A stretch of DNA of 5,747 nt, taken from positions 1 to 5,747 of IMG/VR virus record IMGVR_UViG_3300045988_000087; one strand, given 5' to 3'. The notes under the pieces were generated by a model. That model searched no databases. It had not been told where the DNA came from and saw only the letters and a program-made list of their open reading frames with translations. Every line of letters begins with the position of its first letter. Position 1 is the stretch's first letter. A program made the translations under genes and the position numbers. The DNA is from a virus. This document shows positions 384 through 5,747 of this stretch, piece after piece.

Positions 384-443
384 ATAGAATATATCTACTT
401 GATAGACTGAATAGGCTGATATATGGAGCCTTTAAATGACAAT

Positions 444-475
444 AGCCCAGTACCTTACTTGATAGGTACTGGGCT
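444..475 (-). terminator. 12-bp perfect hairpin just downstream of the VP4 stop; candidate end-of-operon terminator and/or origin structure
   Basis: AGCCCAGTACCT (444..455) pairs with AGGTACTGGGCT (464..475) around an 8-nt loop. It begins 11 nt after the VP4 stop codon in the minus sense. The trailing sequence ATTGTCATTTAAAGG is only a weak U-tract, so terminator function is uncertain. Confidence 0.45.
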
Positions 476-486
476 AGGTGACACCG

Positions 487-1506
487 TTAGAGTGTCCCCC
501 TCTTCTTCATTTGCTTCTTTATCACCCTTTCTTTTGTCTCGCACTGTTCTGCAAAGTCTGTGTTTTCATACTTTAGCCGGTTTTCTGCAATTGCTGCTGC
601 TTGTCTGTTCTGTTTAATTCTCCACAATCTTTGTGGGTTTTCAGCTTCCATCATTTTTTCATAATAACGCGGAATTTGTGCGCGTTTGCCGTTTGTGCAT
701 TGGATATACCCTTGCTTCCAGATTTCAGCTTTGTGTTCTTGATAGTAGTGGTCTCCTAAGCCCGGCTTGAGGCTCATACATGCAAAAGGTTTTTGTTGCC
801 CTAGTTCATAGTACTTGTTTGCTTTTTGACCGTCTATCTCATACATTTTTTTCGTGACGTATCCTGCAACATATCTATACGTTTCTGGCACTGCTTGTGC
901 TATCTGGATTTGACCCATGCCCCATAAGTCTACTAGCCATTTACTTGTGAAGTATCCGTTATGTTGTATCTTGTATAGGTGCTCTAGGTCTGTTGGTTGC
1001 CATCCGTATAGAATCATGTGATAGTGTGGTCTTGCTGTCTGTTCTCCGTACTCTCCCGCTACAAAATAGCGTAATTTGCCCCTATAAGCCTTTCTGAGAC
1101 GTTTTAAGAATTTTTGAATGTCAGGATATAGCAACGTTTGGACGCTTTCTGGGCGCTTCTCTCCCGGCTTCCAGACGTACTGCACTTTTCGCATGATTTC
1201 ACCTGTGTTTACTATCATGCCCGGTACGTGGTCATCGTCATAGGTTAATGTTATAAACCAAACTTCTTCTCTTGGATAATCTCGTGCTTCTAATTCTATT
1301 CGTGTTGTCCAGTCCTCGCGTTGTCGAATTCTACATCCGATGCATTGCCCACATGGTATTAACATGACATCTTTTCTATACATCAGGTCTTCATATTTTG
1401 GCTGTTTCCCGCTTATTTCAGAAAAGCGGGCAAGTGAATACACCCGCCCGCTTATGTCTTTATTTTCTGGGTTGTACAGCCTTATTAATGGCTTGTAGCA
1501 ACTCAT
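487..1506 (-). CDS. Replication initiation protein VP4 (HUH rolling-circle endonuclease; phiX174 protein A analogue)
   Basis: 339-aa ORF with motif I FITLTYDD, motif II HYHMILYG (HUH) and motif III YVAGYVTKK, which has two Tyr spaced Y-x3-Y. The N-terminus has the CGQCIGCR Cys cluster and the MSCYKPL start typical of gokushovirus VP4. The start codon overlaps the VP2 stop as ATGA. Confidence 0.93.
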   Translation of the reverse strand: MSCYKPLIRLYNPENKDISGRVYSLARFSEISGKQPKYEDLMYRKDVMLIPCGQCIGCRIRQREDWTTRIELEARDYPREEVWFITLTYDDDHVPGMIVNTGEIMRKVQYVWKPGEKRPESVQTLLYPDIQKFLKRLRKAYRGKLRYFVAGEYGEQTARPHYHMILYGWQPTDLEHLYKIQHNGYFTSKWLVDLWGMGQIQIAQAVPETYRYVAGYVTKKMYEIDGQKANKYYELGQQKPFACMSLKPGLGDHYYQEHKAEIWKQGYIQCTNGKRAQIPRYYEKMMEAENPQRLWRIKQNRQAAAIAENRLKYENTDFAEQCETKERVIKKQMKKRGTL

Positions 1507-2372
1507 TTTAGATAATCGCCCGGCTTTCTCTTCTCTCCGTATGTTCCAGTTTTGTCTTGCGGCTTTATGCTCCTACTTTGTTCTGTGCTTTTTCCTTTTC
1601 CCATTTTATCCGTTGCCTTTGTGATGGCTTCTTTTGTGTTGTCTCCGACTTCCGTAAGTGCCTTTTGCAGTCCGTATGGTGTCATATGTGTTTCGCTTAG
1701 CATTTGTTGCCAGCTTTGTGCCGCGTTATACCAGTCACTTTGATTCCAACTTGAGCTTGAGTATGCATTTGGCACAAACCCTCCGCTTCGGCTTACTCCT
1801 AGTGCGCTGCTACTTGCCAGCCCCATACTTGCACCGCTGATTGTTCCTGCACTCCCGCCCGGTGTGCTTGCACCTCCGTTTGCAAAGGCTAAGATAGGGT
1901 TAAGCCCTGCTTTTTTCATGTCTTCTACGGCACGCTGGTATGCTGTGCTTGACATGTGTTCTTGCCATTCACGGTTTGCTAGTGCTTCTGCACTGTTGTA
2001 GTTCATTGCTACGCTGTTTTCAATGTGGTTATATACGCCTTGCATGATTGCTTGTAAGGTGTTGTAACCCATCTGTTTTAGCATGCTTTGACTGTTGTAT
2101 TTACCTTGTATGGCAGCCTCTTGCCCTTGGTATGCATATGCCTGCTTTAACCAGTCATTTACCTGCTGAATGTTTGTTCCTGCTTGACTTCCGCTTTCGG
2201 AATGTCCACCGCCTTGGCTTACGCTCCCGCCTTGGCTTTGGCCGTTGCCTGTCTGACCCCATCCACCAAATGTTCCGGCGATTTGTTTTCCGGCGTTTGC
2301 AAATGTTCCAACTGTATTTGCAATGTTTCCGGCTACGTTGAGTGCTGTTAAGAATCCTGATAATGCGCTCAT
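1503..2372 (-). CDS. Minor capsid / DNA pilot protein VP2 (phiX174 H analogue)
   Basis: 289-aa ORF. It has a Gly/Ser/Gln-rich low-complexity N-terminal third and the conserved block HMSSTAYQRAVEDMKKAGLNPILAF, characteristic of gokushovirus VP2. It lies directly after VP1. Confidence 0.85.
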   Translation of the reverse strand: MSALSGFLTALNVAGNIANTVGTFANAGKQIAGTFGGWGQTGNGQSQGGSVSQGGGHSESGSQAGTNIQQVNDWLKQAYAYQGQEAAIQGKYNSQSMLKQMGYNTLQAIMQGVYNHIENSVAMNYNSAEALANREWQEHMSSTAYQRAVEDMKKAGLNPILAFANGGASTPGGSAGTISGASMGLASSSALGVSRSGGFVPNAYSSSSWNQSDWYNAAQSWQQMLSETHMTPYGLQKALTEVGDNTKEAITKATDKMGKGKSTEQSRSIKPQDKTGTYGEKRKPGDYLK

Positions 2373-2410: not shown

Positions 2411-4099
2411 TTACAGTTTGTACAAGCCCGGTACGCTGTATAACGGCATCCGTCTCGTGGTTTTGTTTGCTACACGGATTGCTCCGAAAAATTGCGGTTC
2501 ATTTTCTACGATGAGTGTGCGTGCAATTTCTGCTTTTCCTTCTGCCATCCATCCCTGTGATAGTGTCGGCACGGTTGAATATTTGTCAGCATAGTGCCAA
2601 AAATCCAGCGTTCCTGTTGCGTTGCTTCTCATTTTGCCGGATACTCTGTTTGGCTTCATTCTGTAGTCTGCCCATGCTTCTTGATATCCAAACGTCTCTT
2701 CGTCTTTTTCCGTGCCGGTGAGCATGATTTCTTTCTTTTTTACAGGTTGTTCACCTAAGTTTGCGAGCTGAGGTACATAATAGTCAAGTCTGTCGAGCCG
2801 GCTCCAGAAACGTTCCAGGCCTTGCTGATAGCTGTGATTGTGTCGTACACAACATACTCCGATTACAAAGCCGTGCTCCTCGAAAGATTTTGTAAAACTG
2901 TTTTCATTGATTGGTGTCACTGATACTGCACCGGTTTCACCAATAGGTGTGTTAGTGTTGTCCTGCTGTCCGCTTGTCTGCACAATCTGATTGATATTGA
3001 CGTGATATCTGCCGCCGCCAAGGTATTCCGGGATTTGTACAGTTTTATCAGAGATTACCACATCCCATAGTGCCTGTACCTGTTCGCGGTAACGGCTGCC
3101 GCCTCTTGCCAGTGCCTCGTAGTATTGCTGTACTGCCACGGCTTTTCGCAATTCGTTAATTGTCGTTGCGGTTACTCTGCTAAGGTCTGCACCTAAGAAG
3201 GCCGTATCGTTTACTTGACTTGTCGAATCTGAACTGCCTGTTACTAGCGCATATCCTTTGTGGTCTGCGTTTCGACTGTTGCCGATATTTGGCGCAAGTG
3301 CGTTTCCGCTTAGCGTCTGGTTCAAGTAGATTTCCATGTGTCCACCTACCGTTCCAAACTCTGTTAGCTGTGTGTTTTTATACATTCCAACCGGTGCGTT
3401 ACCATCTAACGGCAATGTAACTTCCGGCCCGCGCTGAGGGTACGGCAGACAGCTTGAGAAGTAGTCATGGAACTTGTTTACCGGTAAGCATCTGCCACCG
3501 TTTATTGCTTTCATTAAGATTTTGTCTGTTTCGATTTCGCCTTCGCCGCCGTCTTGATAAACTACGTTTGCATCATCGGTTTTGATGGTTGCTGCATTAT
3601 CTACATTTTCATCTCTGAAAAATTCATTCCAGATTTTTACATATGCTCGGATTGGCAGTGCGTTTGCTTTAAAAACGTTTTCAATTTTCGTTGGGATTCC
3701 CATGTAATCCAGTATTGATCCTTCATACGGCTGCGGATTATCTTTTTTGCCGTTAATGACGATGTTGGGCACTTTATATTCTTTTTTCGGCATCCATGGC
3801 GTTGCCTCTACTTCTCCCATAAACTGCCTGAAATTATCCCATATGATTCGATTTGGACAATAGAAGTAATAGAAGTCAATGAATGCATCATCCATCACCG
3901 GATACTTCGGCGTGGTCATTCTGATGATTGCTGACGTGTTCACGTTAAACGTGTCGCCCGGCAATACTTCGTCCACGTAAAATGGAATCAGTTTGCCGGA
4001 ATCAAACGTTGTTAGAATAGTCTGGTCGCGGTTGAATCGTGTTCGACTTGCTTTCATTTCTGGAATTTGGTTGAAGTGCCGTTCGTTGTTTCGGCTCAT
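2411..4099 (-). CDS. Major capsid protein VP1 (phiX174 F-like jelly-roll capsid)
   Basis: 562-aa ORF. The N-terminus FNQIPEMKASRTRFNRDQTILTTFDSGKLIPFYVDEVLPGDTF...FIDFYYFYCPNRIIWDNF is the canonical Microviridae capsid signature. The Shine-Dalgarno site is GAGGAGGAAGAAAAATG. The start overlaps the VP3 stop as ATGA. Confidence 0.96.
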   Translation of the reverse strand: MSRNNERHFNQIPEMKASRTRFNRDQTILTTFDSGKLIPFYVDEVLPGDTFNVNTSAIIRMTTPKYPVMDDAFIDFYYFYCPNRIIWDNFRQFMGEVEATPWMPKKEYKVPNIVINGKKDNPQPYEGSILDYMGIPTKIENVFKANALPIRAYVKIWNEFFRDENVDNAATIKTDDANVVYQDGGEGEIETDKILMKAINGGRCLPVNKFHDYFSSCLPYPQRGPEVTLPLDGNAPVGMYKNTQLTEFGTVGGHMEIYLNQTLSGNALAPNIGNSRNADHKGYALVTGSSDSTSQVNDTAFLGADLSRVTATTINELRKAVAVQQYYEALARGGSRYREQVQALWDVVISDKTVQIPEYLGGGRYHVNINQIVQTSGQQDNTNTPIGETGAVSVTPINENSFTKSFEEHGFVIGVCCVRHNHSYQQGLERFWSRLDRLDYYVPQLANLGEQPVKKKEIMLTGTEKDEETFGYQEAWADYRMKPNRVSGKMRSNATGTLDFWHYADKYSTVPTLSQGWMAEGKAEIARTLIVENEPQFFGAIRVANKTTRRMPLYSVPGLYKL

Positions 4100-4494
4100 T
4101 TTTCTTCCTCCTCTGCTTTAGGTTCTGCTTCAAGTTCTGCTGTTGCCATTTTTTGCAGTTTTTCAAGCTTCATTGCATTTGCCTGTGCGGTTGCGATCAT
4201 GCTATGATACTCGTGAATGTTTTGCGGCCATTCTGTAATATCCGTGTATGTATCGTTTAGTGCTCCTTCCGACAGGCTTTTCAGAAACTGCGGGTCAAAA
4301 CTTGCTTTTCGGACAATGTTTTTTATATCGCACTCGTCTGCATAGCTTTCAATTTCCTGCTGGATGTCGATTGGTGCTGTTTCCTGTAGCTCTTCCTGCC
4401 CTTTTTCGTTCTTTGTCCAGACGTACTGCTTCCGAAATTTTTCACCCGATTCAGAAAAGAAGGGCTTTCGCCCTTCTTCGTATCGTTTATTCAT
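4096..4494 (-). CDS. Internal scaffolding protein VP3
   Basis: 132 aa from MNKRYEEGRK. It contains the gokushovirus VP3-like block ESYADECDIKNIVRKA and an acidic C-terminus. I chose the start at 4494 because GGGAGGG lies 9 nt upstream and the ATG overlaps the VP5-like stop (ATGAATAA). The track start at 4614 would add 40 aa that overlap the upstream gene out of frame. Confidence 0.8.
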   Translation of the reverse strand: MNKRYEEGRKPFFSESGEKFRKQYVWTKNEKGQEELQETAPIDIQQEIESYADECDIKNIVRKASFDPQFLKSLSEGALNDTYTDITEWPQNIHEYHSMIATAQANAMKLEKLQKMATAELEAEPKAEEEEK

Positions 4495-4726
4495 TAGGCT
4501 TGCCCTCCCATGCTTTTTCTTTGTCGTTGGTGAAGACACCGGTCTCGTCGTTGAACTTTGCCAGTTTGTAGCCGATGTAGTCCCCCGGCGCCTGTCCAAT
4601 AAAGGTCTTTTCATCTTTTGCCATTACGTTGCACATACGTGCAAAGGTTGCGTTGTTCTTACTTTCGCCCACCCATGCATAGCACTTTGCTACGTTGTCC
4701 CAAATTCCATAATACAGATGTTCCAT
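4487..4726 (-). CDS. VP5-like non-structural protein (putative phiX174 C analogue, ssDNA synthesis/packaging)
   Basis: 79 aa. The pattern MEHLYYGIWDNVAKCY...KNNATFARMC...PGDYIGYKLAKFNDETGVF matches my recollection of the ORF5/VP5 family (Y-I-D-x-V..., ND-x-A-x-R, DY-x-LY-x-G-x-FD-x-TG). It sits immediately upstream of VP3, as in gokushoviruses. The Shine-Dalgarno site is AAAGGAAAAGACAATG. Confidence 0.6.
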   Translation of the reverse strand: MEHLYYGIWDNVAKCYAWVGESKNNATFARMCNVMAKDEKTFIGQAPGDYIGYKLAKFNDETGVFTNDKEKAWEGKPNE

Positions 4727-4865: not shown

Positions 4866-5073
4866 TGTTGTACTCCCTTCTGGTTAGTTCCATTTCGATA
4901 GCATTTGTAAAGCTTTTCATTTGCCAAATTTCTTCTACTAGCCTTTTGGCATCTTCGATGTTTGATACTTTTCTAAGCATTTTGTAATTGCCGTCAATTT
5001 CTTTGTATTTTCGCTCAAGTAGAATTTCTAGTGCTTCTTTGGTCTGGTCTCTTACGTTCCATGCTTTGTGCAT
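4849..5073 (-). CDS. Hypothetical protein, 74 aa; charged and probably helical; no recognisable family
   Basis: The ORF is open from 5145. I chose the start at 5073 (MHKAWNVRDQ...) because AAGGAG lies 10 nt upstream and it follows the stop of the preceding 40-aa ORF by 7 nt. Its 3' end overlaps the J-like gene by 17 nt and carries that gene's Shine-Dalgarno site. Confidence 0.55.
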   Translation of the reverse strand: MHKAWNVRDQTKEALEILLERKYKEIDGNYKMLRKVSNIEDAKRLVEEIWQMKSFTNAIEMELTRREYNNGTTS

Positions 5074-5080
5074 TATGGCT

Positions 5081-5203
5081 TTACTCCTTTTCGTTTTCGT
5101 TGATGCTATCATGCAGTGCGTGATAGATTTCGTCAAGCTTTTCAAGAATCTGCATCATAATGCGGATTGCCTGTTTGACGTCTTTAATGGAAATCAGTGC
5201 CAT
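5081..5203 (-). CDS. Hypothetical small protein, 40 aa (amphipathic-helix-like; acidic C-terminus)
   Basis: Hand-translated: MALISIKDVKQAIRIMMQILEKLDEIYHALHDSINENEKE. The Shine-Dalgarno site AAAGGGGG lies 7 nt upstream. The ATG starts 1 nt after the peptidase stop codon, a tight coupling consistent with the rest of the operon. It is below the ORF-track cut-off. Confidence 0.5.
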   Translation of the reverse strand: MALISIKDVKQAIRIMMQILEKLDEIYHALHDSINENEKE

Positions 5204-5204
5204 T

Positions 5205-5594
5205 TTATACCCCCTTTCTGTATTTTTGGGTGCGTGTGTCGATGTGTACCCATGTGTTATATACGATTATGCCGCATTCATACGGAATTATTTTATTCAG
5301 TTTGTCGGCAATTTCTTTTGCGGTCATGCCATTGATCCGTATGTCTGCCGCCATTCCTCGCATGTGGTATGAGTATTTAGCACCGCCCACTTCTTTATTC
5401 CTTGTCGGTGTCCGGTATCCACTGTTGATGATTACAGGCTTTCCGACCTGGTTTCTGAGGATGTCTAGGATTGACACTAAGTAACTGTCTATAAAAACCA
5501 CCTGTGACCCATCTTTGCAAGCAAATTCTTTTACTTTGAAGTGTTGCCCTACTTTTTCGTTTGCGTCTGTGTCCATGATATAGCTTTTTATCAT
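5205..5594 (-). CDS. Zinc D,D- or L,D-peptidase of the M15 family (Peptidase_M15_3-like peptidoglycan hydrolase); putative endolysin
   Basis: 129 aa from MIKSYIMDTD. It carries the signature FKVKEFACKDG...INSGYRTPTRNKEVGGAKYSYHMRGMAADI...WVHIDTR, giving the H-x6-D and C-terminal H-x-D zinc ligands of M15A/VanY-type peptidases. I chose the start at 5594 because GAGGGGG lies 4 nt upstream and a consensus promoter lies about 25-55 nt upstream. The upstream open frame runs through that promoter. Confidence 0.85.
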   Translation of the reverse strand: MIKSYIMDTDANEKVGQHFKVKEFACKDGSQVVFIDSYLVSILDILRNQVGKPVIINSGYRTPTRNKEVGGAKYSYHMRGMAADIRINGMTAKEIADKLNKIIPYECGIIVYNTWVHIDTRTQKYRKGV

Positions 5595-5619
5595 CTTGCC
5601 CCCTCGCTTTCTATTGTCG

Positions 5620-5648
5620 ATTGTACCATATATTTTACCGCATGTCAA
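5620..5648 (-). promoter_or_regulatory. Near-consensus sigma70/SigA-type promoter with extended -10
   Basis: In the minus sense: TTGACA (5648..5643), a 17-nt spacer TGCGGTAAAATATATGG, then TACAAT (5625..5620). The spacer ends in TGG, giving a TGn extended -10. The promoter lies just upstream of the first gene's Shine-Dalgarno site. Confidence 0.7.
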
Positions 5649-5650
5649 CT

Positions 5651-5747
5651 GTTTTTTTGGTTTGAATGGCGCTTTAGCGCCTTGCCGTGTGGAGCGCAAG
5701 CGGAACTCGGCTAATCCATTCATTGTAAGCGCTGTGCGCGTTTTCAA
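5651..5747. repeat. Terminal direct repeat, right copy
   Basis: Identical to 1..97. Confidence 0.97.

Follow-up and report, generated by a model that had tools for sequence, protein, structure and literature searches.

The virus sequence IMGVR_UViG_3300045988_000087 of IMG/VR, 5,747 nucleotides (nt) in length and analysed over its whole extent (hereafter the window), carries on its minus strand a gene for a small M15 peptidase, a putative endolysin of 129 amino acids. The two ends of the window share an exact direct repeat of 97 nt (positions 1-97 are 100% identical to 5651-5747), and as this terminal duplication is an assembly overlap, the genome is a circle of 5,650 nt. It is a complete gokushovirus genome, in which all genes are read from the minus strand in the order promoter, M15, orf40, orf74, an ORF8-like gene, VP5, VP3, VP1, VP2, VP4 and a hairpin, followed by about 540 nt of non-coding DNA that lead back to the promoter. 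VP1 (Phage_F), VP2, VP3 (Chlamy_scaf), VP4 and VP5 lie on one strand of the circle as is characteristic of Gokushovirinae, which are further defined by a genome of about 4.5-6 kb and by the absence of the phiX-type spike, external scaffold and E genes. The closest whole genome is the Human gut gokushovirus KX513868, with 86% nucleotide identity across 90% of the window.

The M15 protein matches the Pfam family PF08291 (Peptidase_M15_3) with an E value of 5.4e-23 and 81.6 bits (cut-off 23.2) over profile positions 2-108 of 108, and there is a weaker Pfam match to PF05951 and a match to PHROG 894, annotated as 'endolysin', with an E value of 8.5e-44. It consists of one bare catalytic domain and nothing else. 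The motifs H77-x6-D84 and W115-V-H117 are both intact; H77, D84, H117 and also D119 are invariant in an alignment of 45 diverse homologues (38-66% identity), and phmmer aligned the stretch from H77 to D84 with the HxxxxxxD zinc motif of 1LBU. An AlphaFold2 model of the protein reached a mean predicted local distance difference test score (pLDDT) of 98.0 and a predicted template-modelling score (pTM) of 0.91. Its best match in the Protein Data Bank (PDB), as found by Foldseek, is 1LBU, the zinc DD-peptidase of Streptomyces (E 4e-5, TMq 0.64), followed by VanXYc, VanY, the hedgehog N-domain, Ply500, ChiX and LysB4, which is the hedgehog/DD-peptidase fold, recognized at the level of the fold and with the ligands placed by sequence alignment. 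A first-pass annotation, made from the DNA letters without database searches, had named an M15 enzyme with intact zinc ligands and had proposed a profile search and a structure prediction as checks, and both agree with it. On the basis of its M15A motifs and its modelled fold, the gene is predicted to encode a zinc cell-wall peptidase.

Experimentally studied enzymes of the same construction are known from other phages. The M15A peptidase of the Burkholderia phage ST79 (132 amino acids, with H77/D84/H119 and a WxH motif; PMC5025407) and the zinc-dependent M15A endolysin LysPM1 of a Proteus phage (116 amino acids; PMC13461873) are both muralytic. Like the M15 protein of the window, these two and the endolysins of the Faecalibacterium phages FP_Toutatis/Lelie consist of the catalytic domain only (116-137 amino acids) and contain HxxxxxxD and WxH; in case of ST79, the ligands H77/D84/H119 compare with H77/D84/H117 of the window protein, and 1LBU is the best structural match of both. 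Family membership and the precedent of ST79 and LysPM1 suggest that the M15 protein of the window would have muralytic activity as well. The main difference lies in the genomic surroundings, as the M15A genes of double-stranded DNA phages reside in lysis cassettes together with holin-type membrane proteins (and with spanins in case of Gram-negative hosts), whereas the gokushovirus has neither.

M15 genes are widespread in gut microviruses. A tblastn search against GenBank phages returned 758 records with an M15 homologue, and at least 20 gut Microviridae/Gokushovirus genomes in GenBank carry the gene at 60-89% identity, several of them with the label 'peptidase M15' or 'similar to peptidase'. 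In a collection of 5.8 billion proteins, 1,569 M15 clusters (90% identity) were found at E ≤ 1e-10, with identities of up to 98% and, among the matches listed, mainly on contigs of 5.3-6 kb; IMG/VR contains 289 M15 loci. An exact-sequence look-up of the 129-residue protein gave no identical record. M15_3 peptidase genes were already described by Roux et al. 2012 (PLoS One 7:e40418, PMC3394797) in five human-gut Gokushovirinae and six Alpavirinae and explained by independent horizontal acquisitions, with four of the five gokushoviral copies affiliating with Faecalibacterium and with the bacterial and prophage homologues located in cassettes that contain a holin; these authors proposed an endolysin role, speculated on Gram-positive hosts, and noted one complementary-strand open reading frame (ORF) beside a microviral peptidase. 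The report was restated by Kirchberger & Ochman 2020 and Kirchberger et al. 2022 (PMC9239249) together with a recombination of peptidases between microviruses, and the latter study names peptidases as one of the few kinds of accessory gene found in microviruses and adopts the endolysin interpretation. M15 peptidases have also been reported from marine Occultatumvirinae isolates. The copies from gut Gokushovirinae and Alpavirinae (GenBank examples labelled 'peptidase M15' are KX513876, KX513868 and KX513877) agree with that of the window in Pfam family, size, virus group and gut source, and those of gut gokushoviruses, which in GenBank are 63-89% identical to it at the protein level, also share the genomic slot and the Clostridia/Faecalibacterium affinity. 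The novelty that the first-pass annotation had implied is thus lost. It had itself stated that its claim would fail if the gene proved common and already characterised: common it is, and characterised it is in the bioinformatic sense only, as the literature search, with subscription journals mostly outside its reach, found no work on the biochemistry or genetics of a microviral M15 protein. With gene, horizontal origin and probable role on record since 2012, the finding in the window is a correct re-discovery.

For a comparison of genomic positions, the window was set beside 89 M15-carrying relatives. In all 90 genomes, the gene is flanked by the non-coding region on one side and by the small-ORF/VP5-VP3-VP1 block on the other, the position that had been noticed from the window only, and the exact order M15-orf40-orf74-ORF8-VP5-VP3-VP1-VP2-VP4 is found in 71 of the 90. 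When identities to the window are compared, those of VP1 and VP4 are closely correlated (r = 0.93), whereas that of M15 follows neither VP1 (r = 0.10) nor VP4 (r = 0.16). KX513876 (L001) has an M15 protein that is 87% identical and a VP1 that is 44% identical to that of the window, and in KX513868, the nearest whole genome, M15 is only 63% identical. As the identity of M15 is uncoupled from that of the backbone, the gene moves among gokushovirus backbones by recombination, and the pattern indicates an old acquisition that has been reshuffled among them.

This mobility bears on the idea that the enzyme acts at entry, i.e. as a virion-associated hydrolase that makes way for pilot protein and DNA through a thick Gram-positive wall. 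Phages of Gram-positive bacteria commonly have virion-associated peptidoglycan hydrolases, a thick wall would be expected for the host inferred below (Bacillota), and M15 adjoins small structural/assembly genes. However, a capsid-docking protein would not be expected to be exchanged independently of VP1 and VP2, the 129 residues contain no structural-protein fusion or capsid-targeting segment, the T=1 capsid of gokushoviruses has little spare internal volume, and the homologues are annotated and placed as endolysins. An entry function is therefore highly improbable.

With regard to its origin, the nearest non-microviral homologues of M15 are proteins of Clostridia and endolysins of Faecalibacterium phages, with 44-52% identity, which bears out the earlier suspicion of a foreign gene. 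In GTDB, 45 homologue loci were found, all at or below 52% identity and at least 39 of them in Bacillota, mostly Clostridia, with Lachnospiraceae, Oscillospiraceae, Faecalibacterium and Lacrimispora as the main taxa. The best of these homologues (L133, 52%) is a secreted wall enzyme of 280 amino acids with a signal peptide and dockerin-like repeats. Judged from these affinities, the gene is most likely of Clostridia-phage origin, and the host probably belongs to the Bacillota (Clostridia). Most genes of the window are preceded by Shine-Dalgarno sequences of the GGAGG type, which fits a Bacillota host and does not fit Bacteroidota.

In this genome, M15 comes first in a single transcription unit and is equipped with a promoter of consensus type and a strong Shine-Dalgarno sequence. 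Of all sigma-70-like sites in the window, the best one ends 26 nt 5' of the M15 ATG, so that the gene indeed lies directly behind the strongest promoter-like element, as the first-pass annotation had it. The relatives do not in general show this arrangement: of 88, only 31 have a TTGACA-type promoter (counted as TTGACA, 16-18 nt, TAnnnT) in the 120 nt upstream of M15, and in the others one to three small ORFs precede the gene. The window thereby differs from about two-thirds of its relatives, as there is no accessory ORF between its promoter and M15. Two longer forms of the M15 gene were considered, a 180-residue TTG ORF (5205..5747), which is a read-through into the promoter region, and a 199-residue ORF that starts at ATG 154 and remains in frame over the circular junction. 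Both were rejected because they run across the promoter and the Shine-Dalgarno sequence, have a hydrophilic character, and contain stop codons in relatives (L003, L004, L009).

How can such an enzyme reach the murein? The question had been raised in the first-pass annotation and is legitimate, and the window offers no special handle on it. Transmembrane (TM) segments were searched for by the Kyte-Doolittle (KD) mean over 19 residues in ORFs of at least 20 amino acids, in all coding-strand frames of the circularised genome. No such ORF attains KD 1.6 in any frame. By the same scan, M15 has neither a signal peptide nor a signal-anchor-release (SAR) segment, its maximum of KD 1.22 being internal; its N-terminus (MIKSYIMDTDANEKVG) is hydrophilic, as are possible upstream extensions in the window and the relatives. 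The earlier statement that M15 contains no export or membrane segment and has no TM-encoding neighbour thus holds, and there is no small membrane protein near the endolysin that would make up a holin-endolysin cassette in the window. The scan does detect such cassettes: applied to the Faecalibacterium phage FP_Toutatis, whose M15-only endolysin (137 amino acids) is 46% identical to M15 of the window, it flags two membrane proteins encoded immediately after the endolysin, with KD 2.59 and 1.91. Among the 89 M15-carrying relatives, five have a coding-strand ORF above KD 1.7, and only one of these is convincing. It is a 39-residue single-TM ORF (MITFLAIMFSMIACYAIIVGSVYLTIMMVDDIKKWRNEK) with KD 2.47 and a charged tail, inserted between ORF8 and VP5 at 5057-5176 of the close relative KT264793.1 (L006); AGGAGG precedes it as Shine-Dalgarno sequence, and its GTG start overlaps the ORF8 stop codon. 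The four others, L037 (an 8-kb contig), L039, L047 (a VP2 homologue) and L064, were judged doubtful without individual check. The 39-residue ORF looks like a holin or an Sgl (single-gene lysis) product. As a general partner of M15 it was rejected: the phage collection contains no second example, and the window, with a gap of only 16 nt between ORF8 and VP5, lacks it.

Endolysins that function independently of holins exist, such as LysA of Ms6 with its chaperone Gp1, Sec- and SAR-type endolysins, or Svl of the pneumococcal phage SV1. Sec- and SAR-type enzymes carry a signal or SAR segment, whereas M15 of the window has neither by the hydropathy scan. In case of Ms6, a small non-membrane partner is involved, whereas the small neighbours of M15 are backbone genes that also occur in genomes without the peptidase.

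The lysis gene of a related very small genome is overprinted: protein E of phiX174 is a membrane protein of 91 amino acids, encoded within gene D, that has no enzymatic activity and inhibits MraY. Protein E and M15 have in common that both are lysis-related genes of very small microvirus genomes, but M15, unlike E, is a free-standing soluble hydrolase. An embedded out-of-frame gene in the manner of E, one of the routes suggested in the first-pass annotation, is not borne out. When the codons of 85 unique M15 coding sequences were shuffled synonymously, a proportion of 0.28-0.57 of the shuffles equalled or exceeded the observed openness in the alternative frames (two sense, three antisense), none of which is therefore unusually open, so that no overprinted lysis ORF of the E type is found, neither as a TM ORF in the genome nor as excess openness in M15. 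The diversity at synonymous sites of M15 shows only modest dips. It falls to zero only at codons 123-128, which coincide with the Shine-Dalgarno sequence of orf40, and a dip at codons 1-15 fits the translation start. At codons 91-110 (5265-5324), the diversity is about 0.20, in comparison with 0.4-0.5 elsewhere in the gene; no open alternative frame accounts for this dip, which may be due to A-biased two-fold codons (K/E/N) or to a weak RNA or DNA element.

The gene that follows M15 deserves attention as well. The orf40 product (MALISIKDVKQAIRIMMQILEKLDEIYHAL...) starts 1 nt past the M15 stop codon and is translationally coupled to M15 (TAAAATG). Synonymous sites vary freely in this ORF whereas the protein sequence is conserved, i.e. 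it is under purifying selection, and on the evidence of the compared sequences it is a genuine gene that belongs to the backbone. It occurs in 31 GenBank gokushovirus records, nearly all of which lack an annotation for it. In the M15-less genomes KT264799, MG945157, KT264798 and MG945135, the protein is 64-75% identical to that of the window, and identities of this order are kept where VP1 is only about 44% identical, so that it is better conserved than the capsid protein. It is acidic, with a net charge of about -3, and has a maximum of KD 0.95. As orf40 is equally present in M15-less genomes, it was rejected as an M15-specific partner.

Could a holin or another membrane partner nevertheless have been missed? 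It might be encoded by a very short ORF, an ORF with a non-canonical start, or an antisense ORF, or it might be an amphipathic peptide without a TM segment, for which orf40 is one candidate, given its coupling to M15 and the purifying selection upon it. That TM-encoding genes can arise in this backbone is evident from the 39-residue ORF of KT264793.1. The antisense strand is T-rich and contains long hydrophobic ORFs, e.g. one of 95 amino acids on the plus strand at 5197-5484, which recalls the complementary-strand ORF of Roux et al. 2012. On the other side, the coding strand of the window is devoid of ORFs of the scanned size at KD 1.6, a convincing TM ORF is found in just 1 of 89 relatives, the synonymous shuffles reveal no excess openness of antisense or alternative frames in M15, and orf40 itself is acidic, has KD 0.95 and is equally present where M15 is lacking. 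A missed partner of this kind is thus unlikely, although it deserves some weight.

The relatives without the peptidase are informative in another respect. Four of them (L135-L138) keep orf40, ORF8, VP5 and VP3, and the hydropathy scan found no TM ORF in any of these four. M15-less genomes thus share the small genes and likewise have no TM ORFs, and this is the main clue to the mechanism: host lysis in this backbone appears to be independent of M15 and of a classical holin. Since these sister genomes contain the same small genes, the release step is probably encoded by the backbone and holin-free, as far as can be inferred from this comparison.

An alternative that would require no export at all is that M15 remains in the cytoplasm and there cleaves precursors of the wall (D-Ala-D-Ala, UDP-MurNAc-pentapeptide or lipid II), as VanX, VanY and VanXY do, and thereby starves the wall until autolysis sets in. 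M15 would then be an enzymatic single-gene lysis protein, the counterpart of the non-enzymatic inhibitor E of phiX174, and a weaker variant of the same idea would put a non-transmembrane backbone protein in the place of the holin. Such a function would be in line with the lack of an export signal in M15 and of a TM partner in the clade, with a fold common to the precursor-acting VanXYc and VanY (Foldseek ranks 2-6), with M15A's type enzyme (1LBU) having D-Ala-D-Ala carboxypeptidase activity, and with the fact that microviruses otherwise lyse by inhibition of the precursor pathway, as exemplified by E. Yet the closest characterised or annotated relatives of M15 are true endolysins that are encoded beside holin-type membrane proteins, and in the sister phages that lack M15, lysis evidently proceeds in its absence. 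Moreover, ST79 peptidase and LysPM1 could be over-produced in the cytoplasm of Escherichia coli and purified, which argues against cytoplasmic toxicity, and their lysis from outside needed outer-membrane permeabilisation (PMC5025407, PMC13461873). We regard a cytoplasmic mode of action as improbable.

The interpretation that we favour, and hold as a whole with moderate confidence, is that M15 is a minimal M15A peptidase, reduced to the catalytic domain, and functions in a gut gokushovirus as an accessory endolysin. It would be made from the main transcript and, like canonical endolysins, accumulate in the cytoplasm in a folded and harmless state. Only after failure of the cytoplasmic membrane would it gain access to peptidoglycan and cut the stem peptide or the cross-link. 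The lesion of membrane or wall would come from a lysis function of the backbone, which the M15-less relatives must also have. As agents of this lesion, the membrane-inserting pilot protein VP2, a small non-TM protein of the backbone, and host autolysis may be considered, with decreasing plausibility in this order. The N-terminus of VP2 is Gly/Ala-rich and of moderate hydrophobicity (KD 1.09). M15 would thus speed up or complete the breakdown of the wall and not trigger lysis.

Several points weigh against this interpretation. The membrane-lesion step is purely a matter of elimination, and no sequence evidence points to its agent. A strong and constitutive expression of an endolysin from the first gene of the transcription unit is unusual if the timing of lysis matters. 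The hydropathy scan would miss membrane-active peptides without a TM segment, ORFs of less than 20 amino acids and unusual start codons, and, as mentioned above, the literature search found no experiment on any microviral M15 protein. The closest cellular homologue (L133) is not a phage endolysin. As to the host, none of the 45 GTDB loci with M15 contains VP1, VP2 or VP4, and no homologue exceeds 52% identity; as there are no microvirus genes at these loci, they provide no prophage or host link and hence no host assignment.

The features of the window are compiled in Table 1.

Table 1. Genes and signals of the window in the order of transcription (window coordinates).
Feature	Position	Strand	Remarks
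Sigma-70-like promoter TTGACA-17-TACAAT, TG extension	5620..5648	-	11/12 matches, best in window
Shine-Dalgarno GAGGGGG of M15	5599..5605	-	
M15A / Peptidase_M15_3 zinc peptidase, 129 amino acids, putative endolysin	5205..5594	-	ATG 5594, TAA 5205; Pfam, PHROG, model
Zn ligands of M15	H77 5366-5364; D84 5345-5343; H117 5246-5244	-	W115xH and D119 also present
orf40, amphipathic-helix protein of 40 amino acids (MALISIKDVKQAI..ILEKLDEIYHAL), no TM segment	5081..5203	-	no Pfam/PHROG match
orf74, small hydrophilic helical protein, no TM segment	4849..5073	-	detected in 78/90 genomes compared
Arg/Lys-rich ORF8-like protein of 40 amino acids	4743..4865	-	PHROG 10695, E 4.8e-11 (family listed 'unknown function')
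VP5 (Phage_ORF5)	4487..4726	-	Pfam PF20577, E 1.4e-10; PHROG 1670
VP3 internal scaffold, likely start ATG 4494	4096..4494	-	Pfam Chlamy_scaf; PHROG 24309
VP1 major capsid protein	2411..4099	-	Pfam Phage_F, E 7.5e-134
VP2 pilot protein	1503..2372	-	PHROG 8742, E 2.7e-125
VP4 replication initiator	487..1506	-	Pfam PF23343; PHROG 942, E 5e-109
Terminator-like hairpin, 13 bp, directly 3' of VP4	443..476	-	

In case of VP3, a longer ORF of 172 residues from 4614 is probably not used, as the relatives and a GGGAGGG Shine-Dalgarno sequence favour ATG 4494 (132 amino acids, MNKRYEEG...); the 40 codons upstream of this ATG (4494-4614), which overlap VP5 in another frame, are probably untranslated. The ORF8-like protein we take to be a DNA-binding or packaging protein, in view of its basic composition and its presumed analogy to ORF8 of gokushoviruses and J of phiX. 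The hairpin behind VP4 is probably the end of the transcription unit that starts at the M15 promoter. Between VP1 and VP2, the minus strand contains a second, GC-rich hairpin that is followed by a run of T (2381-2400, AGCCCGGAGAAATCCGGGCT ATTTTT); it looks like an attenuator and could reduce the expression of VP2 and VP4 relative to the capsid genes. VP2 and VP4 lack clear Shine-Dalgarno sequences.

In the non-coding region between VP4 and M15, the coding strand shows a series of about ten GTTGAAA/TGTTGAAA units at 95-215, and at 337-383 there is a palindrome of alternating (CGCGCGTG)n, rich in GC, whose 20-nt arms are 90% complementary. Both are possibly replication-origin or Rep-binding elements. 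As the repeats at 95-215 are read in different frames among the relatives, the region is probably non-coding, though some relatives have an open ORF of 51-58 amino acids there. At 18-31 (= 5668-5681) and 224-235 lie GGCGCTTTAGCGCC and ACGCTTTAGCGT, two perfect palindromes that are related to each other, each of them inside a longer direct repeat (family D6).

What does the M15 gene of the window mean for gokushoviruses? As a discovery it matters little, as publications from 2012 onwards already cover the gene, its horizontal acquisition, the hint at a host and the probable function. Its residual value is a negative one: in the coding-strand frames of the window and of 89 M15-carrying relatives, hydropathy reveals essentially no TM ORF, while the same scan flags two such proteins beside the FP_Toutatis endolysin. 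This frames a testable question, namely what opens the membrane in gokushoviruses, and with M15, orf40, orf74 and VP2 it provides a small set of genes that can be synthesised for this purpose. Finally, the Clostridia affinity of M15 and the Shine-Dalgarno usage support the old, unproven idea that the abundant gokushoviruses of the gut infect Bacillota.

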